Below are positions 3,075 through 63,367 of a stretch of DNA of 64,000 nucleotides, piece by piece. The notes below the pieces were generated by a model. It saw only the letters and a program-made list of their open reading frames with translations, was not told the DNA's origin and made no database searches. This DNA is from Eledone cirrhosa (Eukaryota). The translations under genes and the position numbers were made by a program. The stretch lies in contig OZ024745.1 of NCBI GenBank assembly GCA_964016885.1, forward strand, positions 96,906,001 through 96,970,000, written 5' to 3'. Position 1 is the first letter of the stretch. Each line of letters begins with the position of its first letter.

Positions 3075-3170
3075 CCCGACCATGGTTTCTGGAACTCAAG
3101 ATACAACATCTGCTATTCCAAGACATTGGAGTAACCAATATTGGAAGAATTTCAGTTCCTTCATCGGGGG
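3075..3170 (-). ncRNA. Type I hammerhead ribozyme, variant core CCGAUGA, long stem II
   Basis: Minus strand reads ccc-CCGAUGA-A-GGAACU...AGUUCC-A-GAAA-CCAUGG-UC-ggg, with palindromic stem III. Confidence 0.7.
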
Positions 3171-3664: not shown

Positions 3665-3900
3665 CGAAGGAAATGTGGTAAGGAACCAGGTGGACCATAA
3701 CGCACCAAAGTACTCAATACTTGGGGTAGTAGAGTGGGTAATAGGAACCAGTAAGACCCCGACAGCTGAGCTCAAGTCGTTTCGACGGCTAATTCTGGAT
3801 TCTAATTCTTCCCCCCGATGAAGAAATTCTTCCCCCCGATTAAGAGTCCAGAATTAGCCGTCGAAACGACTTGAGCTCAGCTGTCGGGGTCTTACTGGTT

Positions 3901-3905
<5 letters not shown>
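3663..3905. mobile_element. Fold-back PLE pseudo-LTR mini-element between (TA)n tracts, with hammerhead-like motif
   Basis: Inverted repeat of about 60 bp (3741-3800 vs 3846-3905). Plus strand has cccc-CCGAUGA (3815)...GAAA (3863)...G-UC-gggg (3883-3889). Stem II is scrambled by a short duplication. Confidence 0.6.
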
Positions 3906-4140: not shown

Positions 4141-4185
4141 AATATTGAACTAGTTTCGTTGTTGTTACAACTCATCAGCAATATT
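4141..4185 (-). ncRNA. Minimal type I hammerhead ribozyme
   Basis: Reverse complement of 4394-4438. Confidence 0.85.
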
Positions 4186-4393: not shown

Positions 4394-4438
4394 AATATTG
4401 CTGATGAGTTGTAACAACAACGAAACTAGTTCAATATT
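4394..4438 (+). ncRNA. Minimal type I hammerhead ribozyme
   Basis: AAUAUUG-CUGAUGA-GUUGU(AACA)ACAAC-GAAA-CUAG-UU-CAAUAUU: 7-bp stem I, 5-bp stem II, palindromic ACUAGU stem III. Confidence 0.85.
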
Positions 4439-4792: not shown

Positions 4793-7700
4793 TTGGGTAT
4801 GACATTAAACTACATCCAGTGGCAAGGCTCCAGTTCGGGAGTTCAGGAGATGTGGGGAATATGGAGTTACCCCTTAGTTGTCATGACTCCCAGGTCTGCC
4901 CTGGCCCGGGGTGGTAGTACCTGTTAGGGCTCCATTTATGGGTTAAATAACTACCTTATTCGAGTGGCGCCGGTAAGGTATTGTCAGCCATTGAAAAGAA
5001 ATATGGAGAGTCGATCTAACAGCACTAGGGTTAGAGCCCCTAATTACACTGTCAAGGAGCAGCCTGGTCGTTATGACTCTGCTGGCTTAGAGCCACAGAG
5101 AGGGCCAGTGGATGATGGATCAGCTGTCTCTGAGACAAATATAAAGAATGCAGTTTTGTCCTGCAGAAGAGCCATCAAAATGGGCACTTTGAATGTGAGG
5201 ACTATTCGAACGCTGGAGAAGAGAGAGGAGTTGGGACATCTGTTCGAGGAGAGTGGTATACAGATACTTGCGATCCAAGAACACAGGATTCTACACGATG
5301 AGCCCGTGAGGAGTGTGATGATCGGGAGGAAGAGCCAGCTCATCACTACATCGGCAGTGAAGAACACAACAAATGCTGCAGTAGGAGGAGTGGGTTTTGT
5401 GTTCAGTGCAAAAACCAATCTGTTGGTGAGGGAAATAATGCCTATCTCCCCGCGAGTGTTGAGGGTGACCTTCAATGGAAACCCAAGACTGACAGTCATC
5501 TCAGCCTATAGTCCAACCGAGGGGGACAGTGATGTGAATGCCGAGGAGTTCCATGAGGAAGTGTGTAGAGCTGTCAACACCACTCAGGCACACAATATCC
5601 TGCTTGTTTTGGGGGACTTCAATGCACATCTGAGTAAGGAGGGCAGTGAAGATCCTTACTGGTACTTCCATAACAACACCAACCGAAATGGAAGACTACT
5701 GAGAGACACCCTGCTGGAGGCGAACTTGATGGCGACCAACCTAAGGTTTAGGAAGAATCTGGGGAAGATGTGGACCTACATCTCAGATATGCACCTGTCC
5801 AAGTCCCAGATTGATTTCATTCTGGTGAGGAAAAAGTGGCGGAATAGTGTTCTGAACACGGAACCATACAGCTATTTCAGTACACTGGGTAGTGACCACC
5901 GGCTTGTTATGAGTGAGGTCCGCGTGAGCTTAAGAAAGAGCAAGGCTCAGCCCCGGAGAACAATCTATGACTGGGGAGCTTTCAAGGAAGATGATAAGCT
6001 ACAGGAGAGGTTCACAGTGGAAGTGAGAAACAGGTTTAGTGCTCTGTGTGGAGAGTCAGAGGAGAGAGAGATTGGATGGACTGAGGAGAGTGTGACGAGG
6101 AGGTACGGGCACTTCACCAATGCAGTGGCGAAAGCAAGTGAAACCCTGGTGCCGAGGAAAAAGAACAAAGGGAAGCACGTCAGCTCTGCAGACCCAAAAG
6201 TGTGTGCAGCCAGAGAACACCTGAAAGCTGCCAGGGACCAATTCTATGCTGATCCTACGGAGGAGAGGATGGAGACTGTGGAGGTGATGAGGGAAGAGCT
6301 CTGTACCGCTTACACTGAGGTCAGAGAGGAGGCACTGATAGAGAAGATCAGAAGTGTGGAGAGAGCGGTTGACAGATCTGGATGTAAGGAGAGCTGGATG
6401 ATCATCAACGAGATCACAGGGAGGAAGAAAAGGTGTTCGAGTCAGATCCAGGGAACGGGGCCCGAGGATAGGAAGAGGAAATGGCTAGACCATTTTAGGA
6501 CCCTACTAGGAGAGCCACCCTCCACAGCCCAGAGCACTGGGGAGATCAGGCGGCTGTTTGAGGAACTGGATGTTGAGACAGAGCCCTTCACCAGAGAGGA
6601 GCTTCAGAGAGCCAAGAAGAAGATCAAGGAGGGCAAGGCTCATGGAGAAGATGGAGTAGCATCAGAGGTGATGAAGTGGTGTGATTTTGATGATATCATC
6701 CTGGGGTTCTGTAACGGGGCACTGGAGAAAGGAGTTGCCCCGAATCAGTGGAGGATCAGTAACATCGTCCCAGTGCCAAAGAAGGGAGATCTCTCTAACA
6801 CCAACAACTACCGGGGGATCTCACTGACGTCACTTGTGGCAAAGACCCTCAACAGGATGATTCTTAACAGGATCCAGCCTGAGATGGAGAAGAAGCTCAG
6901 GGACAACCAGAACGGCTTCAGAGAGGGTAGATCAACCACCAGTCACATCCTGATGCTGAGGAGGATATTAGAGGGAGCTAGAGCAAAGTGCCTTCCTGCG
7001 GTCATGGTTTTCATTGACTTTAGGAAGGCCTTTGATTCTGTGGACCGTTACTGCCTGATGAAGATCTTACAGGCTTATGGAATCCCCAAGAAGATAGTGG
7101 ACCTGATATCACTGCTCTACACCAACACCAAAGCCCAAGTCATTACACCTGATGGGATGACAGAGTTCTTTGAGATACTGGCTGGAGTGCTCCAGGGAGA
7201 TACATTGGCTCCCTACCTTTTTGTCATCGTAGTGGACTATTGTATGCGCCTTGCACTGGAGAAACACCAGGACTCTGGCTTTACTGTAGCACCGGCTCAG
7301 AGCAGGAGAGTTGGGGCGAAAAAGGTATCGGATGCTGAATTTGCCGACGACATAGTTTTGGTGACAAATACAGTGAAGGAGGCAGAGGATTTGATGCGGG
7401 AGGTTGAGACTGTGTCGATGAGTGTGGGGCTGAGAATGAATGAGACTAAAACAAAATATCTGGTAGAGAATGTTGAGAAGCCAGAGGGGATCACTAATGT
7501 AGGCGGGAAGCCGCTGGAATTGGTTGAGGACTTCCTGTATTTGGGAGCAAAGATTGGGAATACGGAAGATGATGTGGTTGAGAGGAAGAGCAAGGCCTGG
7601 GCGGCGTGCCACAGCTTGAGATCGGTGTGGAAGTCGGACCTTCGTAGAGACCTGAAAATCCGCCTCTTCATTGCTGTAGTGGAGTCTGTGCTGCTGTATG

Positions 7701-8098
7701 GGTCTGAGACTTGGACACTGACCAAGAGACTCACTCAGATGGTGGATGGGTGCTACACGAGAATGCTGAGGATGGCTCTGAACATTAATCAGTATACACT
7801 GAGGATGAAAAACTCAGAGCTGTATGGGAGCCTCCCAAAAGTCAGCTCAAAAGTGACACAGAGGAGACTGAGGTTGGCTGGACATGCTCACCGACATCCA
7901 GAGTTGACATTGCACTCCGTGCTCCTTTGGGAGCCCCTACATGGACACACTGGAAGAGGAAGACCAAGGTTAACATATGTTGATGCCCTAAGGACAGACA
8001 CTGGTCTGTTGGAGACGCAGGACATGGCAGCGATAATGAGGGACAGAGACCGCTGGAGAGAGCTCGTCCATGGATCTCGGGAATTTTACCCGCCTTAG
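4790..8098 (+). mobile_element. Full-length RTE-clade LINE inserted in (TA)n
   Basis: GC-richer island bounded by (TA)n on both sides, with a short 5' UTR and a single EN-RT ORF. Confidence 0.93.
4964..8098 (+). CDS. RTE LINE protein: APE endonuclease plus reverse transcriptase (first ATG at 5003)
   Basis: Motifs GTLNVRT, AIQEHR, YSPT, GDFNA, IDFIL, SDH (endonuclease); [38 protein letters not shown] (RT); C-terminal RGRPR...R..W. No internal stops. Confidence 0.95.
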
Positions 8099-8728
<630 letters not shown>

Positions 8729-8778
8729 AAATCAGGAAAGAAGGTTGACATGGTTTGCTATACAAAAAAGGTTTTTAA

Positions 8779-8902
8779 TCTCATAGCTGACAATTGTTTC
8801 TCTGAACTGGTAGGTCTAGAGATCGCTATTCGCTTATTTTCACGTTACTCGATCGCCAATACAAAAAAATTATAACCAGTCAGTTCTTCGGAGCATGCGA
8901 GA
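8779..8902 (-). ncRNA. Type I hammerhead, variant core CCGAAGA, very long stem II (3' pLTR of PLE1)
   Basis: ucucgcaugcu-CCGAAGA-A-CUGA-CUGGU...ACCAG-U-UCAG-A-GAAA-CAAUUG-UC-agcuaugaga. Confidence 0.72.
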
Positions 8903-9266
8903 ATGAAGAGTATACACAGGCAAGAAAAGAATATACAGGCTACTATATGAAGTAGTAATGGCATTCAGTTAGAACAATAACAACAATGCTATTAATAAAT
9001 TATTTGAGGAGACCCTGACATTACTTAGGTGGGGGGTATAGTGTATCTAAGATTACGGCGTGTAAAACTAGCTGTCATGAGGCAAATGTAAGAGTTTGGC
9101 ATGTACAGAGTATCGAAGTGTGTATCAATTTTAAATTATAAAGATAAGCCAGTATTTACAGTCTTTCTTTTCATCTTCAATAACATACAGGAGTGGGACA
9201 ACACTGTCAAAGCTAAATAGTTGTTGAGTTAATACAGAGGTTAACGAGGTAATATACGCATATATT

Positions 9267-9363
<97 letters not shown>

Positions 9364-9676
9364 GCATGTGTACATAGACACATACATACACATCAATATA
9401 CACTCGTACAAAAATATACATACATGCAAAGAGATAAGCGTGCTAATTGTAATTATGGCAAAAGGAAGGTAAAGTTACATTGTAGTAGTGATTTGAGAAA
9501 AACTAGGATTTAGGATCATATGATGGCAGCAGCTGAGAAGGAATAAGTTTGTGGGTTGATGAGGTACTTACAGACATTTGTGTGGTATAGACTTGTGAAG
9601 GCTAGAGTATACTTAATGGATATATTTCTGTGGGTAGTAGGTATCCTAATTTAAAGCTATGTTGTGTTGGTTCGAT

Positions 9677-12079
9677 TCACGGAGGTTTGAATCTTATGAA
9701 TTTAGTGGCAATTCTATGTCTGCAGAAGATAGATCTTTCTAACTTATTGTTAAGTAGCCTTTTTACATTTTTGAGGATATACAATAGCTCAAGATCACAT
9801 AGCCCGCAGTGGGACATCCCTGTACTATAGGTTTTAGCAGCCGACAACTTCGACCAGTTGATACTGTAGTTAGTGCTACTGTCCTTTAGTTCCCATATTT
9901 TTTTGGCGAGGGTTGTGGAACCCATAAGTGTACGGTTCTTCATTGAGTGCCTGTGCACATACCATCTTTTTTTAAAAGAACCCGCGGTGGATCCTATGTA
10001 ATTCCAGGTGGAGTTACCCGAGATGACCGTGCACATGTACACTAGGCTCGAATCGAGACATCTGTTCGCCAATGGGCACCTATCTGGTAGGTGACAGTTA
10101 CAGTTTGAGGCGCTATTTTGTGCAGCTTTTACATTCCTGTTTAGTACTCTGTTATAAGTGGGTTGTGATATATGCCCAATGGGGTTTTGCTGCTGCGCAT
10201 TTGTATGCGCTTGTGGTTGTGATGTTGTGATGTGTTTGTGCTTATAATTTGGTGCTACGTTATGTATAGGTGCAGTTTATTTACTAGAGATATTTCTGTG
10301 GTTGATCTTGCGTATGTGTGATTCTATGTTTGCTGCTGTTGAGTATGAGAGTTTTATAGTAGATCTATTGAGTATTTTGTGATATCTATGCGAGATAGGG
10401 AAGTGTTTATCTATTAGTTTAAAGAATGTAGAGGGCAGTCTAGTTTTTATAGAGGAGTTGAATATTGGGTTGAACCATAGGTATTTTCTTTGTCTGTTTC
10501 TTCTATTGTTTCTTGGGTTTACGTTATTAGTGTTTTGGCCGTTTACTCCAGGTGTTACGTGTCTAACCCTATGTCTAGTCAAGTTATTTCTATTATTATG
10601 TGAGCGGTTGGAGTAGTAATTACTAGGATTGTTTACGTTGTCTTTATTCACTATATACTGCAGTTTATCTTTATGACCAGCCCTACGTAATGCTGCATTA
10701 TAATAGTCAGCATGCTCGTTAAAGATTTCTAGGTTTGAGGATAAGCGGGATATTCGGAGGGATATACTACGTGCTATGGATCTAATTATGGATTTGGAGT
10801 AATTTGAGTTGTAACTAATGTAGGCAAGATTTTCATTATTTTTGTGGAAAGGTTCTATTAATCCAGTATTTAGATTTAGAGTCACATCTAGAAAATTTAC
10901 CTTCTTATGGTTCAGTTCGTAGGTAATACCTAGGCCTAGTTTTTTTAAGAATATTCTAATATTTTTTCTTAGTCTTTCCATGCTCTGGTTGTTTAGGTTC
11001 CTAGCTATAAGTAACGTGTCGTCCCTATAAATTCCTCCTTGGAGGTTACTGAATTCCTTATGTAGGTTGTGTGCTATGAATAGCTCCACGATATCTGTGA
11101 TTTGCACAGAATCATTTGATCCCATTGTTATATCGAAGCTATTTATTCTATCCTTTCTTACCCAGTAGCTATTTTCAAATTTATGATAGTCCTTCTAGCC
11201 GCTATTATTATTTCAATTTCATCATGGGTAAGATCAGAGTTATTTTGGGCAAATATAAGCGCCTTATCTAGGGTAGCTGGGGATATGGATGCATAGTAGT
11301 CGTCTATATCAAATTGTATGAAGTTACACGTCTCCCTATTTTGTATTTTATTGAACCATTTAATTGCCTCGTTAGTGTTGCCCCACAAATTGATTTCTAG
11401 TTTACCCTTTATTTGTGCGATTACCCTATCTAGAATGTTCTTGCTAATTTTACCTTTGTCTGACTTGGATGGGCATATTAATCTAATGGTGGGATTAGTT
11501 TCAAAGTTATTTTTGTGATCCTTCAGGTTAAATGTTGGGTTGCACGGGGTTAGCGGTTCGGTCCTATCTGGAATTCCGAGTTTATTAACTATCTTGAGGC
11601 CCTCCATGTTTATGCTGGTCAGTGTAGATTCATTTGTTTTTTTATATTTTTTTATGTAGTTCACGCTGGATAAAGCTAATGTATGTGTTAATGTCCATAG
11701 AGTATACGTTTGATGTTTTGTCTGCATTTACTATGATACCGTTAGTGTCTTTTAGTTTTTTTAGTAATGTATTTAAGTCATTTTGCAATTTGTTGTGATT
11801 TGTTCCTTTTTTAAATTTAGTTTCACTTATCATGTTCATAAGGTCCAGCTCGAAGGCATCGAGTGCTGGGTTGTTTGGCGGGTTTTTGCAGGATTTAAAC
11901 CCGTAATTCTCCTTAGAAAATTCCTTTGCGTTGGTATTCGGTCCCTTATCGAAATGGTAAGCTTTCCATCGGACCCTGCGGATGAAATCATTAGTCCGTC
12001 GTATCATGCCCAGTGTATAGTCCTTTTTTGTAGGTATAGGTATGTTTTTCAGTGACATACCTATACGGTGCTTCTCCAT
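9677..12079 (-). pseudogene. PLE1 RT-GIY-YIG ORF broken by frameshifts and a TAA at 10277
   Basis: ORF-track pieces join up: NADKTSN, FIQFDIDDYY, MGSNDS, GIYRDD, NFLDVTL, WFNP. The linker CNC...CPL...CL is in frame after the stop, followed by LVY...YIGST...FKKR, CGLC, CRH. Confidence 0.92.
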
Positions 12080-12350
12080 GTTGTTGCCGTGCGTTAATGG
12101 TGTTGCTCGACCAGGTGGGAGCTAAATATACGGGGTAACAAATAATAGTTAAATGCAGTCCACTTAGGTATAGTCCAGTTATGGTATTCCAGGTAGTGGA
12201 TGATATTAACGCTTGGCTTGGTTTGACTCAACAAGGCGTTTTCATAGTGATGCTGCGGGTATGCTGTAATTCCTATGTTGTAAACACTTGGAGTAATAAT
12301 AAATCAGGAAAGAAGGTTGACATGGTTTGCTATACAAAAAAGGTTTTTAA

Positions 12351-12471
12351 TCTCATAGCTGACAATTGTTTCTCTGAACTGGTAGGTCTAGAGATCGCTA
12401 TTCGCTTATTTTCACGTTACTCGATCGCCAATACAAAATTATAACCAGTCAGTTCTTCGGAGCATGCGAGA
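12351..12471 (-). ncRNA. Type I hammerhead, variant core CCGAAGA, very long stem II (5' pLTR of PLE1)
   Basis: Second copy of 8779-8902. Predicted cut between 12361 and 12360. Confidence 0.72.
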
Positions 12472-12794
12472 ATGAAGAGAATACACAGGCAAGAAAAGAA
12501 TATACAGGCTACTATATGAAGTAGTAATGGCATTCAGTTAGAACAATAACAACAATTACAACAATGCTATTAATAAATTATTTGAGGAGACCCTGACATT
12601 ACTTAGGTGGGGGGTATAGTGTATCTAAGATTACGGCGTGTAAAACTAGCTGTCATGAGGCAAAAGTAAGAGTTTGGCATGTACAGAGTATCGAATACAG
12701 ATATACAATACAACAGGAGGAACATAATAGCACCACTGACGGTGTTGCAGCTGTGCAAGGAAATAACTTTATTAGACTATATATATGTGTTTAT

Positions 12795-19899: not shown

Positions 19900-20198
19900 A
19901 AGGACGATTTGTATGTCTTCATTACGTTTATTTAGTGACGCGCGTTTCGCTATTGATTCTCTCATTACAACACCAGATATCCGAGGAGCTTTTGATTCCA
20001 GAGTCGTGCCAGATCGATACAGATCGAACCGTGAACTGATCAATAGCGGAACGAGCGTCACCAATCAACAAACATAATGAAGACATAACAAATCGTCCTT
20101 GTATTATTATATTTACACTCTGTTTAGTTCTACACCTCTTTACAGACGTGAATCTATACATCGAATGCTCACCTGGGTGAACCTACAGTAACAGCACG

Positions 20199-21169: not shown

Positions 21170-24100
21170 AATTTACAGACACATACTCAGAGTAGGCCCA
21201 TTCACTCGGGCCATACTTGCTTCTCTCACCCATCTTTCAACAAAATGCTGGGAAGAGAGCACTTACCTCTCTACCCTGATTTTCCTTTTCAAATGAAATT
21301 TGAAAAAGTTAATCAGGGCATCACCGAAGAGGTAAGTGCTCGTCTTCAGCCCTTTCAAACGTGTCCACCATACTATCTATTTCACCATGGCCACCAAACA
21401 GATAAAAACTGCCTGCCCTTCCCGGCTAAAGGAAGAGGGCGGGGCAATCCTCACGATGGACTCAGCTGATAGCAGGTGTTCGACATAAACCACAAGTCAG
21501 CAATGCTCGGACACTGGACGAGTGCGTGCAGGACGGTTTCGTCGCCCTGCGCGCATCTCGGACATGCCTGGCTGACGGCACCTCCATGCCGGTAGAGTTT
21601 ATCCCGAACTGGCAAAGCTCCTCGGTAGCACTGCCAGGCCAGGGATCTCTGGAAGTTGTCCATAGGCCTCGGCCCGAAAGTCCTTCCGAAGAGATTGGCT
21701 AGTTGATTTTCGTCGACGCCTAGAATTTCTCCGAGTACGTCGTCGCTCTTCCCCTCCACTAATCCTCTATAGAACGCCAAGGTGGAGTTTCCACCGATCA
21801 CATTGCCCGATTGGTCGAGGGCTGTGAGCACCTGAAGACATTCCAGTCTACAAGTGCTCCCTCTCGGTCTTCGCTTGACCCAGGCCTGCAGCTCCGTCAA
21901 GGAGACGAGCTGGAGAAAGACGTGTCTAGCAAACGGCGACCACACCTGATCACCGTCGAGGAAGAGGTGGAGATGTCGTAGCCTGAGCGCGTGTCTACGC
22001 ATCATCAGCCACGGCATGCCCAGCCCTCCACCTAGCGGGTGTGAACAGCAGATGGACCGCCTGACCATCGGAGCACGTCCCTTCCACAAAAAGCGAAAGA
22101 GCAAACGCTCCAGCGCAGTCGGGCGATAGTAGATGACGGATGCGATGTACGCATTCGCCACCTCCGCTCGACCTTTCAGGGATAGCTTCCTCTCCGCCCA
22201 TTTCTGGGTGAGAGAAGCCACCCTGCTCGTCACCTCGTCCCAGTTTTTGTCCGTCTGGAGGTCCGGACCGAACCAGATCCCTACCAATTTAACCGGTCCG
22301 TCCAGCGCCCGACGACGCTGTTGGACGGCATGGACCTGCCTCTCCAGGTACCGAGCTGCAGGTCCATTGACTTTTCCTGGTTGATCATTGCTCCTGTCAC
22401 CGCTTCGTATTCTCTTAGTGTAGTGCCGATCGCCTCGATGTGTTTGGCGTTCGACACCACTACGGTGACATCGTCCGCATATGCTGACACAGATCTTCCG
22501 CATCCTAGTTCGCGCGGGACCCCCCCCCCCCTCAACGTCTCCAGTTTGTGCAGTAATGGCTCGAGAGTCATTACGTACAAGAGGGACGAGAGGGGACATG
22601 CTTGGCGGACCGAGCGCATGATGTTGAACGGTTCCGAAAGGTGACCGTTCACTCTCACCACAGAGCAGATGTCGCTGTGCATGGCAGCGATCCAACCTCT
22701 GAAGACGGGTCCAAAGCCAGCCGCCCTCAGGACTGCCGCTAGGTAACGATGGTCGACCCTATCTAAAGCTTTCGACTGATCTAAATTGATCAAGGACCCA
22801 CCCGTGCCAGGTTCCTTAGCTACACTCTTTACGATGTATCGCATAAGGTGGAGGTTGTCGTGGATGGATCTGTCGGGAATGGCGCACGTCTGCGGCTCTC
22901 CCACCAGACCACCAACGACAAGCGTCAACCTCTTTGCTAGCACCTTGGCCAAAATCTTGAACTCTGTGTTTAGCAGAATTATGGGTCTGAAATTATCTAT
23001 GTTATCCCCCTTGTTCGGATCCTTTCTCAGCAGCGCCACAGCACCTCGGCTCACAGAGCTGGGAATTCTCCCGTTCTGTTGCCAGTTGCAGTAGACGTCC
23101 GCCAAGAGGCCTCCGAGCAAGTCTGGCATCTGTACGTAAAGTTCATAGGGCAGACCATCCAAACCAGGCGATTTACCCCTTGTGCAGCCAGTCATTGCCT
23201 CCCGTACTTCAGCGGCTGTTATCGGCTTTTCGCAACACTCCGCCTCAGTGACCGAGAGCCGCGGCAGTCCGTCGAGGTAGACACTAAAGTCCATCCCTCG
23301 ATTCGGCCCGCCGCTGCCCCCGAACAGCTGAGCGAAGTGTCGCTGAAAAGCTTCACACATTTGCCCGGGATCGAGTAGCATGCGCCCGTCGTGGTCCACC
23401 AATGACCGGATCGTGGTTTGTTGCCACGACGCGCCTCCGCCACTCGGGCCCATTGAACGGCTTTCGTCCCCTCGTGTCTGAGAGCACGCACCCTAGCTCT
23501 GACAACGCAGACTTCGTGCTTTGCATTGAAGAATTGGTCAAGGGCCAATTTCGCCGCAAGTACGTCGGTCGCGATGTCTTTGCTAAGCGCCTCGTCTAAT
23601 TTTCTAACTAATTCCCCTCTGCTCTATTTTTCTCTATTGCTAAAGCCTTACTAAACCTAATGGACTCTATTCTAATTTTTCTTTTCAGAGCAAACCACCA
23701 CTTGTTGTTGACGATGGCCCCCGTCAACGCCCGCTTAACTAGTTCGCTAATCCGGTCTCTGTAGGCCTTGAGCGCTGGTAAGGACGCGTTTAACTTCCAG
23801 TAGCCGGGTCCTCGTCTATGAAGCCTATCTAAGTCAAGCACACAGATCACGAATTTGTGGTCCGTGTAGGTGACTACTTGAATTGTGGACAGTCTATGGT
23901 AGACCTATCTATTTCCCTACAAAATACTCTATCTAGATATGATCTGGATGACCCTATGCGAATTGTACAAGTCCACATTGGCACATTCGGGAAATCCAAT
24001 CGGTACCTGTCAGACAGTTCAAAACGCCTGAGCAGGTTCGTGAGGCTCTTGTACCCTCCTCCCCTATCCGCTAATCCCACACAGTCCCAGCGTGCATCTA

Positions 24101-24542
24101 AGATCCCGTTCCAGTCGCCCACTAACACTAAAGAGCGGGACGTTCCAAGAAAGGTCTCCAGACGCCGGAAGAAATCAGGCCGCCCTGCTCCTGTTGGGGC
24201 ATAGACGGCCACTAGCCTGAAAGCTTTCCCGTCTCCGCTGGTCACGTCCAGCACCACCAACTTACCTTCTGGGTCCAGGAAGATGTTCCGTATGGCGAGA
24301 TCCAAACCTCTCCGAAAAAGCACAGCAACTCCCCCCCCCCCCCCCGATCCAGGACTGTTGGGAGATGCGTACACATCGTAGACGCCGAAGATCGGTGCGA
24401 AGGCCCGTGCTTCGGAGATTCTGGTCTCGCTGATGGCCACTACATCTATGTTTAGTGACCCAAGGTTGTTGAGCAGGTGGCCCTGCTTCCATGACGACCC
24501 CAAGCCACGCGCATTTATGCTGCCTATTCTGAGTGAGGTCAT
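21170..24542 (-). pseudogene. Copy A ORF2 (APE endonuclease, RT, C-terminal Cys/His motif), frameshifted
   Basis: GSINARG, AISET, VYAP, GDWN, YLDR; GYWKLN; KSPGLDG, NFRPI, LDQSKALD, YADD; CPRC...ETVLHAL.QC. Confidence 0.92.
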
Positions 24543-24574
24543 GTTGAAATGGAGTGGAAAAGAAGGGAAAGATC

Positions 24575-27216: not shown

Positions 27217-30200
27217 CTACAGGCGTATATTCAGAGCGGTCCCGTTCACTCGGACCATTCTCGCTACATTCAACCACCTTTCAACAAACTTGCTAGAAGG
27301 CAGCACTTGCCTCTCCACCCTAATTTTCCTCTTCAAGTGAAACTTGAAAAAGTTAATTAGGGATTCGCCGAAGAGGAAAGTATCTGTCTTTAACCCTTTC
27401 AACCATGTCCACCACACAATCTCTTTCGCCATGGTCACCAGGCAGATGACAACCGCCTGCCCTTCCTCCTCGAAGGAAGACGGCGAGACCATCTGCACAA
27501 TGGACTCAGTCGATATCCGGATCTGTCCTACACGCGACAGCAACTGTTCGACATAGCTCCACAAGTCAGCAATGCTCGGGCACTGAACGAGTGCGTGCAC
27601 GACGGTTTCGTCGCTCTGCGCGCATCTCGGACAGGCTCGGCTGACAGCACTTCAGTGCCTGTAGAGCTTATCTCGAACCGGCAACGCTCCCTGGCAGCAC
27701 TTCCAGGCCAGGGATTTTTGGAAGTTATCCATAGGCCCTAGGCTGAAAGTTCTCCGGAAGAGAGCAAACAGCTGATCTTCTTCGACGCCCAGGATCTCTC
27801 CGAGAACGTCGTCGCTCTTCCCCTCCACTAGTCCTTTATAGAACGCCGAGGTGGATGTTCCACCGATACTGGTGCCTAGCTGGCAGAGGGCAGTGAGCGC
27901 CTGGAGACATTCCAGTTTCCAAGCGCTAGCCCTCGGTCTTTTCCTGAGCCAGGACTGCAGCTCCGTCAAGAAAACGAGCTGTGGGAAAATGTGCCTGGCG
28001 AACGGCGACCACACCTGTTCACCGTCAAGGAAGAAACAGAGATATCGCAGCCTCAGCGCATGTTTGCGCATCATCAGCCATGGCATTCCCAGTCCTCCAC
28101 GCAACGGGTGTTGACAGCAGATGGATCGTCTGACCATGGGAGCGCGTCCCTTCCTCAAAAGGCGGAAGAGGAGACGCTGCATTTTGGTGAGAGTTGGGCC
28201 GGGGGAAGAGACGACGGTGAGGCGGTAGCAGATGACGGATGCGATGTACGCATTCGCCCCTCCGCCCGGCCTTTCAGGGACAGCTTCCTCTCGGCCCCTT
28301 TCTGGGTGAGGGAGGCCATCTCGTTCGTCATCCGGTCCGAACCAGACCCCGAGCAATTTAACCGGCCCGTCCGTCCAACTCCCCATGACGCTGTCGGACG
28401 GCATGGACTTTCCTCTCCAGGTGCCGAGCTGCAAGTCCACCGACTTTTCCTGGTTTATCTTTGCTCCTGCCACCGCTTCGTATTCCTTGAGAGCGTTGCT
28501 GAGCATCTGGACGTGTCTGGTGCTCGACACCACCACGGTGTCGAGCACCAGACACGTCCAGATCGCATCCTAGTTCGCGTCCACACACGCATCCTAGTTC
28601 GCGTGGGACGCCCTACATCGCCCCCAGTTTGTGCAGTAACGGCTCGAGAGACAATACGTACAAGAGGGACGAGAGGGAACAACCCTGGCGGACCGAGCAC
28701 ATGATGCTCAACGGCTGCGACTGGTGACCGTTCACCCTCACAACTGAGCCGATGTCGCTGTACATCGCAGCGATCCAACCCCTGAAAACGGGCCCGAAAC
28801 CGGCTTCCTCGAGGACCGCCGCAAGGTACCGATGGTCGACCCTATCGAATGCTTTGGATTGATCCAAGTTGACCAGGGCCTCACCCATGCCAGGTTCCTT
28901 AACCACCCTCTCTATGATGTATCGCATGAGGTGGATGTTGTCGTGTATGGATCTGTCCGGAATGGCCTATGTCTGCGCCTCTCCCACCAGACGCTTGACG
29001 ACAAGGACCAACCTCGTTGCTAACACCTTGGCCAAAATCTTCAACTCTGCGTTTAGCAGGGTTATGGGCCTGAAGTTATCGATAACATCGCCTTTGTTCG
29101 GGTCTTTTCTCAGCAGCGCCACCGCTTCACGGCTCACAAAACTGCGAATGCTCTCATTCCGCTGCCAGTTGTAGTAGACGTCTGCCAAGAGGTCACCGAA
29201 TAAGTCTGGCATAAATGCATAAAGCTCGTAGAGCAGACAATCCAAACCTGGCGATTTACCCCCTCGTGCAGTTAGCCATCGCTTCCCGTATTTCACCGGC
29301 TGTTATTGGCTTTTCGCAACACTGTGTTGCGGTCGTCGAGAGCCGTGGAAGCCCATCGAGGTATGCACTGAAGTCCCTACACCGATCCGGCCCACCGTTG
29401 CTCCCGAACAGTTCAGCAAAGTGCTGCTGAAAAGCTTCACACATCTGCTCGGGTTCAAGCAACACGCGCCCGTTTTGGTCAGACAAAGACCGAATTGTGG
29501 CTTTGTTGCCACGTCGCGCCTCTGCCACCCGGGCCCAGTGGACGGCTTTTGTCCCCTCGTGTGTCAGAGGACGCGCTCTAGCTCTGACAACGCAGCCTTC
29601 GTGTTTTGCGTTGAAGAATTGGTGGAGTGCCAATCTCGCCGCAAGCACGTTGGTTGCGATGCCTGTCCTAAACGCCTCTTCTAGCTTTCTGACTAGCTCT
29701 CCCTCTACTCTATTTTCCTCTATCACTAGTCCTTTGCTAAACCTAATCGACTCTACTTTAATTGCTGAACCACCACCTGTTGTTGACAACCGCCCCCGTC
29801 AACGCCCGCTTAACTAATACGCTCATCCGGTCTCTGTAGGCTTTGCGCGCCGGGAAAGACGCGTTAAGCTTCCAGTAACTGGGCCCTTGTCTATGAAGTC
29901 TGTCTATGTCGATCACCCAGATCACAAATTTGTGGTCTGTGTAGTCTTATACTAGCCTTATCTAGTTCTCTGCAGAATACCCTATCGAGATACGTTCTGG
30001 ATGACCTAATGCAGTTTGTCCATGTCCACATTGGCACATTCGAGTGATCCAGTCGATACCTGTCAGACAGTTCAAAACGTCTGAGCAGGTTAGTGAGGCT
30101 CGAGCACCCTCCTCCTCTATCCACTAGCCCCACACAATCCCAGCGTGCATCCAAGATACCGTTCCAGTCGCCCACTAACACTAAAGAGCGGGACGTTCCA

Positions 30201-30586
30201 AGAAAGGTCTCTAGACGTCTAAAGAAATCTGGCCGTACTGTCCCTGTCGGGGCATAGACGGCCACTAGCCTGAAAGCGTTGCCTTCGGTGCCGCTTACGT
30301 CCAGCACCACCGACTTACCTTCTGGGTCCAGGAAGATGTTCCGTATGGCGAGACCCAAGCCTTTCCGAAACAACACAGCCACTCCGCCCCCCGCTCCCGG
30401 ACGGCTCGGAGATGCGTACACCTCGTAACCGTCGAATATCGGTGCGAAGGCTTGCGTTTCGGAGATTCTCGTCTCGCTGCTGGCCACATCTATGTTTAGT
30501 GACCTGAGGTCGTTAAGCAAGTGACCCTGATTCTAAACCAAGCTCAAGCCACGCACGTTTACACTTCCGATTCTGAATACGGCCAT
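27217..30586 (-). pseudogene. Copy B ORF2, multiply frameshifted, YADD region destroyed
   Basis: ORF-track fragments are collinear with copy A ORF2. Confidence 0.92.
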
Positions 30587-34228: not shown

Positions 34229-34362
34229 CATGTAAAGTTATATTTAAAATTGTTGGGTTACAACTAGTAAATATTTATAACTGATATAAAAGCACTCGAC
34301 AAATACTTGGAGTATATTTACAATATTAAATAAATGGAAAACTATATTTATAAAACCATATT

Positions 34363-34428
34363 TATTTCATTATATATATTTCGGGGATATCATATTAACA
34401 ATATGCTATGCCTTCATCAGACAAAATA
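34363..34428 (-). ncRNA. Type I hammerhead (PLE2 3' pLTR)
   Basis: Reverse complement of 37586-37651. Confidence 0.7.
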
Positions 34429-34793
34429 CAATATAAACAGTTTTATAGATAAATATATTCGACATACCGTAATGAACATCAACTTCATTTGAAGAGGTTC
34501 ACTCTAGCAGTGAAAACACAGAGAGAAAGAAAGAGAGAGAGAAAAGAGGGAAATAAGAAAGAAAGAAAGACAAAACGAAGAAAAGGAAGAAAAAGAAGAA
34601 AAAGAAGAAATGCATGGGACAAAATAGAGAGATGGAAAAATAGATAAAGCGAAGAGCTTCATGTAAAGAGACCGAAAGAGATATATATATATATAGAGAG
34701 AGAGAGGAAATAGAGATAGATACATATATAAATATAGATATAGAAAAATTAGGTAGTGGGAGGTCATTTTGAGTAAGTGTATCAATGATGCAT

Positions 34794-34836
<43 letters not shown>

Positions 34837-36030
34837 GCTCAAGTATTAATGTAAGGGAGATATAGAGAGATATAGAGAGATATAGAGAGAGAAAAATTTA
34901 AAAATAGCCAGACATATTCGAGGCGTAGAAAACCCTATGTTTTAATGTATTATTATTTATAAAACTTACACTATATTGTAAATATCAGTATTCCTGAATG
35001 AAACAAGTATTCACAATGCGTGAAAATTCATTATCTTATGTTTAGTTTTTTAAAAAATTCATATGTCTATGTGAATCCAACTGATTCACTCCGCAAATTC
35101 AAAGTTACCGGAAAACATTCTCAATGTGGTATAAACATTTGAGCGTATTATTATTCTTGCGATTACTCTACAAGATTATCTATCAAGCAGAAATAGAGAG
35201 CAGATTTCAATATACTAATCGAAAATATATATTATATTATAAGCAGAGATAACAATAATAATGATAATAAGTAAAAATATATAAAAATATAAAAATATAG
35301 AATAGAAAACTAAAAAAGAATATTACGAAAGAATATTACATAATAAAAATATTGCATATTAAAAATACTACGTATTAAAAATATTACGTATTAAAACTTT
35401 ACATATAAAAATATTAAAAATATTAAAAATATTAAAAATAAAAATTTACATATAAAAAAAAAAAAAAAAAAAAAAAAAATTTACATATAAAAATATTAAA
35501 AATAAAAATAAAATAAAATAAAAAATAAAAATATAAAAATATTATAGAATACTACAATACTAAAAGAATAAAAATAAAAATACAAATAAAAATAAAAATA
35601 AAAATAAAAATAAAAATGAAAATAAAAAATAAACCACAAAGAACAACCCTTCAAGGTTAATTGACAATATATTGCCAAGTTCACTACAAGACAAAGCCAA
35701 AAATTATCTATCAAATCACATCTAGCAAGGAATATCGCAAAAAAAAGATTATGATGTCCAATAATGTCTACATATGTTCCTATATTTAATATATAAGTTT
35801 ATCAAGTGTAAGGTTAATTCAGAAAATTTGGAGCATCGGCTTTTAGGGTAGCTTAATTTTTCATGAGGAATGTTTAGATAAAAATAAAAATAAAAATAAA
35901 AATAAAAATAAAAATAAAAATAAATACAATAAAATAAACAATAAAAAGAGTAAAAAGAGGGAATCAAAGATTTAGGAATCAAAAGATTTATCGGCTAGTT
36001 CTCATATAAATATAAATCAAACTAAATATA

Positions 36031-36660
36031 CTACATTTTAAATTTAAATTTATATTTAAACGTTGAGTTTAATCTATGTTTGCAACAACTGAATAAATTT
36101 GTCCGTAGGTTAAGGGAATTTTTAGATTTTAGTATAAAGAATATCTCCTCTGCGCAGAGGTCACATGTCTCAGAGGATGAATTAAAAGGAATCCCTCTTG
36201 AGACTATATTCCAAGCCGTCGAATATCTAACGTTATCTAGCTTAAGTTGCCAGAGTACACCTGATAGTGCCGTTGAAGATTTTTTATTTGGATCTGTGAA
36301 AGAATTCTTGTGGTTATTATAGCGAAGTTTAAATTCCGTCGATGTGGAACCGACGTAGTTAAAAGAATTAGAGTCAGTATTAACATTACAATTGTATACT
36401 ATATTTTTAACTAAGCAGTTGTTATTTAACGGACATTTAGATCTATCTCTACAGTTACATTTGTTAACTTGTATATTATTTATGCTATTATCAGTAGGTT
36501 TTAAGTTCCTATTATTTATTCTATTAATATTTTGTGCTAAATTTTTGGTGGATGAATAGGTTAATTTAATTGTATGCCTATTGAAGATTGAGTGGTACCT
36601 ATGTGTTCTAGGGAAGCGATTATCAAGAGCTTTGAAAAATAATTTAGCGATGTGGGTTTT
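36031..36660 (-). pseudogene. Start-less open frame (209 codons): PLE linker plus GIY-YIG endonuclease
   Basis: Hand translation: KTHIAKLFFKALDNRFP...IFNRHTIKLTYS...CNCRDRSKCPLNNNCLVKNIVY...YVGSTSTEFKLRYNNHKNSF...LWQLK...CDLCAEE...LN...CKH, then stop. Confidence 0.93.
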
Positions 36661-37185
36661 TAATATGCAATATTTTTATTATGTAATATTCTTTCGTAAT
36701 ATTCTTTTTTAGTTTTCTATTCTATATTTTTATATTTTTATATATTTTTACTTATTATCATTATTATTGTTATCTCTGCTTATAATATAATATATATTTT
36801 CGATTAGTATATTGAAATCTGCTCTCTATTTCTGCTTGATAGATAATCTTGTAGAGTAATCGCAAGAATAATAATACGCTCAAATGTTTATACCACATTG
36901 AGAATGTTTTCCGGTAACTTTGAATTTGCGGAGTGAATCAGTTGGATTCACATAGACATATGAATTTTTTAAAAAACTAAACATAAGATAATGAATTTTC
37001 ACGCATTGTGAATACTTGTTTCATTCAGGAATACTGATATTTACAATATAGTGTAAGTTTTATAAATACTAATACATTAAAACATAGGGTTTTCTACGCC
37101 TCGAATATGTCTGGCTATTTTTAAATTTTTCTCTCTCTATATCTCTCTATATCTCTCTATATCTCCCTTACATTAATACTTGAGC

Positions 37186-37220
<35 letters not shown>

Positions 37221-37585
37221 ATGCATCATTGATACACTTACTCAAAATGACCTCCCACTACCTAATTTTTCTATATCTATATTTATATATGTATCTATCT
37301 CTATTTCCTCTCTCTCTATATATATATATATATCTCTTTCGGTCTCTTTACATGAAGCTCTTCGCTTTATCTATTTTTCCATCTCTCTATTTTGTCCCAT
37401 GCATTTCTTCTTTTTCTTCTTTTTCTTCCTTTTCTTCGTTTTGTCTTTCTTTCTTTCTTATTTCCCTCTTTTCTCTCTCTCTTTCTTTCTCTCTGTGTTT
37501 TCACTGCTAGAGTGAACCTCTTCAAATGAAGTTGATGTTCATTACGGTATGTCGAATATATTTATCTATAAAACTGTTTATATTG

Positions 37586-37651
37586 TATTTTGTCTGATGA
37601 AGGCATAGCATATTGTTAATATGATATCCCCGAAATATATATAATGAAATA
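37586..37651 (+). ncRNA. Type I hammerhead (PLE2 inverted pLTR)
   Basis: uauuuugu-CUGAUGA-agg...cauauu/aauaug...ccc-GAAA-UAUAUA-UA-augaaaua; base of stem II imperfect. Confidence 0.7.
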
Positions 37652-37700
37652 AATATGGTTTTATAAATATAGTTTTCCATTTATTTAATATTGTATATAT

Positions 37701-37759
<59 letters not shown>

Positions 37760-52409: not shown

Positions 52410-52460
52410 AGTTTAAGCAAAGAATCGCTGCTTTCACCCTTAACGGGATCTTCTGAAACT
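52410..52460 (-). ncRNA. Hammerhead-like motif, core CAGAAGA
   Basis: Inverted copy of 55446-55496. Confidence 0.6.
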
Positions 52461-55445: not shown

Positions 55446-55496
55446 AGTTTCAGAAGATCCCGTTAAGGGTGAAAGCAGCGATTATTTGCTTAAACT
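55446..55496 (+). ncRNA. Hammerhead-like motif, core CAGAAGA (PLE3 3' pLTR)
   Basis: aguuu-CAGAAGA-uCCC(guuaa)GGGu-GAAA-GCA...UGC-UU-aaacu. Confidence 0.6.
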
Positions 55497-63316: not shown

Positions 63317-63367
63317 AGTTTCAGAAGATCCCGTTAAGGATGAAAGCAGCGATTCTTTGCTTAAAAT
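63317..63367 (+). ncRNA. Hammerhead-like motif, core CAGAAGA, in a solo PLE3-family pLTR (63316-63480)
   Basis: Third copy of the motif; the flank matches the reverse complement of 52290-52461. Confidence 0.55.

Follow-up and report, generated by a model that had tools for sequence, protein, structure and literature searches.

In the genome of Eledone cirrhosa, position 4 of the hammerhead ribozyme core, the uridine of the CUGANGA box, is the one core position that varies between families of Penelope-like elements (PLEs), apart from the known U3-A8 swap, and whole families carry C or A in its place. The variant was noticed in a stretch of 64,000 nucleotides (assembly GCA_964016885.1, contig OZ024745.1, positions 96,906,001 to 96,970,000 of the forward strand), hereafter the window, in both pseudo-long terminal repeats (pLTRs) of an element here called PLE1; coordinates are those of the window. 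A preliminary description of this DNA had proposed a U4C core, with an A·A-closed and very long stem II, recurring in four unrelated families as a selected, lineage-specific variant. The variation is wider than first noted, position 4 being U, C or A, and fewer features go with it than had been claimed. C4 is a family-level variant and not the product of decay, and it recurs in separate PLE lineages. Our reading, to which we give a probability of about 0.6, is that these motifs are still-selected but slow hammerheads in which position 4 is relaxed.

The PLE1 Element and Its Two Hammerhead Motifs

PLE1 lies on the minus strand as a partial tandem with the following features:

12302..12695, minus strand: upstream pLTR, the 5'-truncated upstream unit of the partial tandem (unit length 3572 nt)
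12358..12463, minus strand: type I minimal hammerhead motif of the upstream pLTR, core CCGAAGA at 12460-12454
12123..12298, minus strand: putative "tail" between two preferred 3' termini, +62 and +238 nt from the predicted cut
9677..12079, minus strand: predicted Hydra-clade PLE open reading frame (ORF), with a reverse transcriptase (RT) carrying RWK, DKT and YRDD, a CxCX5C linker and, at the C terminus, an endonuclease of GIY-YIG type
8786..8894, minus strand: second U4C hammerhead motif, in the downstream pLTR, core at 8891-8885
8730..9117, minus strand: downstream pLTR and 3' end of the element, adjoining a (TA)n tract

The two pLTRs are 96.5% identical, and their letters, read again, contain the motif as first described, in the minus-strand order GCU, CCGAAGA, A, the two arms of stem II, A, GAAA, CAAUUG, UC and AGC; the same motif is present in both pLTRs of two other full tandem copies. 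Numbering and the NUH rule are used here as generally established for hammerheads. C3 falls at 12460 and 8891 and C17 at 12361 and 8789, with predicted cuts after GUC at 12361/12360 and 8789/8788. The core fits C3-U4-G5-A6-N7-G8-A9 at six of the seven positions, position 4 being C, and G12-A13-A14, the A15.1-U16.1 pair and an H17 other than G are represented in both pLTRs by GAAA, A-U and GUC. The closing pair G10.1-C11.1 is replaced by A·A in PLE1 (12453 and 12373 in the upstream motif) and is unpaired in 13 of 15 relatives. In the upstream motif GAAA occupies 12372-12369 and the palindromic stem III 12369-12362; the insert from A9 to G12 measures 81 nt there and 84 nt in the downstream motif, basal stem II is predicted to pair and stem I to have 3-4 bp. 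Stem III is an 8-nt palindrome with an intermolecular duplex of -7.8 kcal/mol, and this short palindromic stem III, found in both pLTRs, is the arrangement that characterizes minimal dimeric PLE hammerheads. An alternative upstream CUGAnGA that could rescue PLE1 was considered and rejected, the CCGA core being the sole CTGAnGA or CCGAnGA near either motif on the minus strand. Short-stem C4 copies elsewhere (L102 5960-6050 and L115 2727) carry another CUGAnGA some 45 nt upstream of their CCGA core, for which a weak pairing with the same 3' half is possible.

By its RT, linker, endonuclease and (TA)n features, as these are set out in section 11 of PMC8557442, PLE1 is classified as a young Hydra-clade PLE, the endonuclease tree described below containing sequences of one genome only. 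Its endonuclease aligns with CxxC and CxH, and its 3' end at 8730 adjoins a (TA)n tract, as insertion in this clade does. It departs from the clade in two traits, the canonical hammerhead (its core is C4) and a length generally <3 kb (its unit is 3572 nt). The ORF of the window copy is broken by frameshifts and stops, with its ATG 281 nt past the predicted cut, and Pfam gave zero matches for the ORF fragments. The family is young, 17 of its 40 best copies being 100% identical over 141 nt.

Position 4 Is the Core Letter That Varies

The variability of each core letter was assessed in 40 evenly spaced 10-kb stretches (400 kb), picked regardless of content. A structure scan of this blind sample found 39 palindrome-type motifs (28 U4, 10 C4 and 1 A4), and a scan also permitting a true stem III found 41 (23 U, 12 A and 6 C), against 0 in the reversed control of the former and 0 in the control of the latter. 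When other letters were admitted at positions 3, 5, 6, 8, 9, 12, 13, 14, 15.1/16.1 or G at 17, each scan returned 0-2 motifs, compared with the 41 of the reference. Among 68 full copies collected by homology, position 4 was U in 43, C in 12 and A in 13, so that U4 is absent from 25 of them (37%); the remaining conserved core positions deviate in 0-3 copies, and position 17 is A, U or C, never G. The variant scans are the fairer control, because a fixed core had been required in finding the homology queries, and self-hits make up 39 of the 68 rows.

The same pattern emerges from the whole genome of 3.0 Gb, in which reversed patterns served as controls. A general descriptor gave 13,105 matches with U4 (control 797), 6,691 with C4 (control 644) and 2,174 with A or G at position 4 (control 1,938). 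The comparable transition at position 6, A6G, gave 1,383 matches (control 577), which by eye belong mostly to one unrelated repeat, with real motifs in only 2-3 of the 100 listed. The possibility that the PLE1 copies carry private mutations of a family whose consensus is CUGA was examined with the family pattern, position 4 being left free: it matched 300 times (control 0), and among the first 100 listed 97 have C and 3 have T. In addition, C4-G5 of the variant core is a CpG. Its decay product, CCAAnGA, shows no overall excess (1,434 matches, control 1,852), but by eye some 30 of the 100 listed belong to C4 families; since these copies stand among the products of CpG decay, mutation erodes C4 instead of creating it, running back towards U4.

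The expectation that standard searches would miss the variant holds in so far as published descriptors demand CUGA and the Rfam hammerhead models gave 0 matches in the window at the gathering score, but Rfam misses the U4 motifs here as well: in six loci, some U4 motifs among them, its 123 matches at E up to 10 contain no hammerhead.

Recurrence of C4 in Separate Lineages

The history of position 4 was followed on a tree of 31 endonuclease fragments (150 columns), chosen from search hits and each labelled by its nearest downstream motif. C4 needs 4 changes on this tree, at least 3 of them by the starred branches; long branches and linkage by proximity limit this result, and the tree does not separate gains from reversions. 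It rejects a single C4 clade (p-AU 0.0011, or 0.0019 when two poorly aligned rows are dropped and six C4 rows remain), and the closest labelled sister of PLE1 is U4. For other animals, a metagenome scan gave one relative, at 35% identity and without a recognisable hammerhead, and 567 homologous proteins were retrieved without DNA context. A read contig spanning position 4 (depth 8.9, from a run labelled as another organism, with three differences elsewhere) was too thin to use.

Within the window, the U4C change had also been assigned to three other places:

3075..3170, minus strand: U4C hammerhead motif (CCGAUGA) from a separate, older family of repeats, closed by A·A, with an insert of 71 nt and the palindrome CCAUGG
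19978..20062, plus strand: decayed member of a third C4 family, closed by G10.1-C11.1, with an insert of 60 nt and GGAA for GAAA
3804..3823, plus strand: non-hammerhead; private filler of 20 nt in the middle of an inverted junction, its letters identical to those of the 3167 element

The first is a real C4 motif with the same layout as that of PLE1 and a fold z of -2.64; its family has CCGA in 13 of 21 aligned copies, CTGA in 6, CAGA in 1 and CCAA in 1, one partial row having been excluded, and no PLE ORF was found near it in the 20 loci fetched. The copy at 19981 belongs to a real C4 family, which has a U4 sister subfamily, and is itself decayed, as its GGAA and its broken palindrome indicate. 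At 3815, a fourth C4 family or ribozyme had to be rejected. The 20-nt filler occurs only there and in the 3167 element about 650 nt away, its CCGAUGA part is covered only by the window copy among 40 scored genomic matches, and it sits on the truncated 3' half of a member of another family; where copies of that family retain a 5' half, 7 of 9 have the known U3-A8 core. The four unrelated families are thus three.

The stretch 3804-3843 appears to be a junction filler templated from the 3167 element, about 650 nt off, plus a partial second repeat. It falls in a high-copy element (3741-3905, also in loci L067, L218, L220 and L014) whose intact copies have a U3-A8 hammerhead with a true stem III; a recognisable 5' half accompanies only 9 of 117 3' halves, many being truncated within stem II as inverted pairs.

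An Abundant Family With A4

The window also holds three motifs with A at position 4:

55446..55496, plus strand: U4A hammerhead-like motif, CAGAAGA, located at 55451, endonuclease about 1 kb upstream
63317..63367, plus strand: second U4A motif, located at 63322
52410..52460, minus strand: third U4A motif, located at 52455

In order, they consist of stem I (5 bp), CAGAAGA, stem II (3 bp, closed by U·U), GAAA, a true hairpin stem III and UU before the partner strand of stem I. The motif stands about 0.94 kb downstream of an endonuclease, and other copies are found in loci L152-L201. A protein search with this neighbouring endonuclease scored 150 places, 95-100% identical, in several of which the open frame is about 700 aa long, and a 26-letter pattern of the motif matched 16,635 times (control 0), all of the 100 listed being A4. 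The motifs belong to a young PLE family of very high abundance, one of the most successful in the genome.

Variants of the pattern with another letter at position 4 gave 1,088 matches, with U in 82, G in 11 and C in 7 of the first 100. The apparent U4 subfamily did not survive inspection: all nine U copies fetched are centres of inverted junctions, where TTCAGAA meets TTCTGAA. With this subfamily reduced to junction products, the hammerhead identity of the A4 motif is argued from its position and its layout. The latter is like that of published Hydra-clade motifs, including the U·U that closes stem II, whereas the 26 rows of File S2 of PMC8557442 are all CUGA. The core near-palindrome of the A4 family is a hotspot of inverted junctions (loci L222-L230), which makes a CUGA core on one arm.

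What was proposed for C4, a selected variant rather than decay, stands in its second half, since C4 is family-level and recurs in separate lineages; C4 may be tolerated rather than positively selected, and an abundant family carries A4 instead.

Relation to Known Hammerheads

PLE hammerheads, mismatched stem II closures and a viroid with U4C are already known, whereas the literature searched showed neither C4 fixed in whole families with several origins nor a dominant family with A4. The Hydra-clade PLE hammerheads (Craig et al., 2021, PMC8557442) resemble those described here in the RWK and DKT motifs, the CxCX5C linker, the C-terminal GIY-YIG endonuclease, the (TA)n tract and a type I motif near the 3' end; a U·U closure of stem II is a natural exception found in many motifs of the clade. 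They differ in that all 26 rows of File S2 have CUGA, which the descriptor required, and short stem II loops, unlike the C4 and A4 cores and the inserts of up to about 116 nt of the present families. With the minimal dimeric PLE hammerheads (Cervera and de la Peña, 2014, PMC4209133), which show low activity in vitro, PLE1 shares the type I arrangement, the palindromic stem III, the short stem I and the presence in both pLTRs, but in their consensus an unpaired base stands on the 5' side alone of a conserved G10.1-C11.1, where PLE1 has A·A. The sole core variant found in PMC4209133 was U3-A8, and the two CCGA matches in its supplement are, in the passages shown, not cores.

The substitution itself is not new. 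A rare natural viroid variant with U4C (Ambrós and Flores, 1998, via PMC3088659) has lower activity in vitro and supports infectivity, and U4 contacts the backbone near positions 6-7 and has no part in the chemistry (PMC3088659, section 8); here the same change is fixed in several families and thousands of copies, and is joined by U4A. As U4C is a documented active natural variant, C4 makes a motif less canonical without making it less likely to work like a hammerhead. No published PLE hammerhead with a C4 or A4 core was found in the literature searched; Lünse et al. (2017), on small PLE hammerhead variants, may have described some earlier.

Element Ends and a Proposed Mechanism

In loci picked by their similarity to the motif, the genomic 3' ends of PLE1, counted from the predicted cut, lie at +62 nt in 23 of 51 cases and at +238 nt in 20 of 51, and copies of the A4 family end at +29 or +114. 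Fifty PLE1 alignments span the predicted cut, and none of the 29 nearby 5' ends falls on it (nearest -76 and +43). The two preferred 3' termini are likely to represent two start sites of reverse transcription. Because genomic copies run past the predicted cut, the copied RNA would have had its 3' hammerhead uncut or rejoined. The second 3' terminus coincides with a branch-point-like TTAAC and a TTTAG before the ORF, resembling a 3' splice site (12122-12150, minus strand). Introns in the 5' untranslated regions of PLEs are known.

A similar situation has been described in the anole Poseidon PLE (Frangieh et al., 2024, PMC11167929), in which a tail is delimited by two start sites, insertion mainly uses uncut RNA as its template, hammerhead mutants insert normally in vitro and cleavage needs the element's protein. 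That element differs from PLE1 in belonging to the Penelope/Poseidon clade, in its tail of 30-40 bp as compared with 176 nt here, and in that its protein-assisted cleavage was shown experimentally.

On these grounds a mechanism can be proposed for the slow but still-selected hammerheads. The palindromic stem III would make the PLE1 motif act as a dimer, and the predicted cut after GUC would remove the 5' part of a tandem read-through transcript up to a point 281 nt upstream of the ATG. U4 would be a structural residue of the U-turn and not a catalytic one, so that C4 or A4 would lower the rate without abolishing it. New copies would be made from RNA in which the 3' hammerhead is uncut or rejoined, and the PLE protein would probably assist folding; with such a template and such help, slower cutting would likely be affordable. 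Position 4 would be relaxed, since maximal cleavage would not be needed. A bolder proposal, which we advance tentatively, is that position 4 is an evolvable rate dial, the PLE protein taking over the U-turn role of U4, and that C4 and A4 motifs cut only inside the ribonucleoprotein, leaving enough uncut template. If so, the A4 family would be a natural protein-dependent hammerhead whose core, judged by the mutagenesis of isolated RNA, is predicted to be crippled.

Several points weigh against slow but active hammerheads. When a type III hammerhead was subjected to deep mutational scanning, every single mutant in the CUGA region had low activity (PMC9901934), so that C4, and A4 above all, may be nearly dead. 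A search for a canonical U4 subfamily within the A4 family found none. The recurrence of C4 depends on 150 columns and on a linkage of hammerhead and endonuclease by proximity (0.4-1.6 kb), and the 68-copy counts carry the limits described above. The stems do covary across 15 PLE1 relatives (score 0.188 compared with 0.141, reached in 0 of 500 shuffles), a point in favour, although kinship alone can cause this; in the short-stem C4 clade covariation is not above that of shuffles (62 of 500), in a test that ignores relatedness. RNAalifold recovered the distal hairpin alone (6 pairs), and the monomer fold of PLE1 is not unusually stable (z -0.37), which is expected of a motif predicted to need a dimer.

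Alternative Explanations

The C4 and A4 motifs might no longer cleave and be kept instead as a folded RNA element that binds protein, serves packaging or overlaps a promoter, most of the core letters being needed for its shape. Such an element would agree with the weak activity of CUGA-region mutants (PMC9901934), with the ability of PLEs to insert in vitro without cleavage (PMC11167929), with the lack of any cluster of genomic 5' ends at the predicted cut in PLE1 or the A4 family and with the expectation that A would be a poor replacement for U in a U-turn. We consider this unlikely, given that G8, G12, the A15.1-U16.1 pair and the exclusion of G17, all relevant to the chemistry, are kept in C4 and A4 families alike, and that the viroid with U4C is active enough in vivo (PMC3088659).

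A second alternative, in our judgement improbable, is that C4 is fully compensated and cleaves at a near-normal rate, through a protonated C that keeps the hydrogen bond of the U-turn or through contacts made by the long stem II or the PLE protein. A protonated C with a pKa >8.2 does replace U in the U-turn of the neomycin riboswitch (PMC4105743), palindrome-type motifs have C4 commonly and A or G at position 4 near background, and the distal stem II hairpin shows compensatory changes; the viroid variant, on the other hand, is slower in vitro (PMC3088659), and A4 would be left unexplained. Moreover, no compensating feature tracks C4 between sister families, the closure pair and the insert length being shared with U4 sisters, and stem I is only slightly shorter in C4 families (3.5 compared with 4.5 bp, p 0.023, uncorrected for kinship). 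This bears on two companions first attributed to the variant, the A·A closure and the long stem II, which were compared in 45 family representatives (17 C4 and 28 U4), hand-picked and one copy each, a choice that also weakens our own reading. Positions 10.1/11.1 are A·A, U·U, G-C, U-A, C·A or A·C among them. A·A occurs in 4 of 17 C4 and 7 of 28 U4 representatives, and inserts of at least 60 nt in 11 of 17 and 12 of 28, respectively, with inserts of at most 20 nt in 6 of the 17 C4. Neither feature belongs to the variant, and both were discarded as compensation for C4.

Mutational decay of dead copies, already largely refuted, can be set aside: the older family at 3075-3170 is mixed (13 CCGA and 6 CTGA of 21) and the copy at 19981 is decayed, but C4 is present in 97 of 100 listed copies of a family that includes 99-100% identical members, position 6 seldom shows the matching transition and CpG decay removes C4.

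Significance and Other Contents of the Window

The CUGA box has been treated as invariant, and the searches for PLE hammerheads consulted here hard-code it. With U4 missing from 37% of the motifs of the blind sample, censuses of PLE ribozymes are likely to undercount, and some "hammerhead-less" PLEs may not be so. Sister families that differ at position 4 are natural matched pairs for studying the role of the PLE hammerhead and the amount of cleavage that transposition needs, and protein-assisted catalysis can be tested directly in the U4A family.

The window also contains roughly a dozen motifs of PLE type with the canonical CUGA, from several families, at 4178, 34420, 38047, 59021, 61773 and 62240 on the minus strand and at 4401, 37594, 38203, 60526, 60891 and about 55635 on the plus strand; Rfam finds none of them. 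An inverted-repeat PLE insertion at 34313-37701 has arms of 516 and 575 nt (99-100% identical) with U4 hammerheads in both, and contains an endonuclease fragment at 36064-36459 on the minus strand. ORFs of LINE-type retroelements (APE endonuclease and RT) are found at 4928-8098 on the plus strand, an open frame of 1056 aa, and at 21451-24572 and 29891-30532 on the minus strand. Locus L058 (4902-7933) contains what we take, by their motifs, to be fragments of a Helitron-like helicase.

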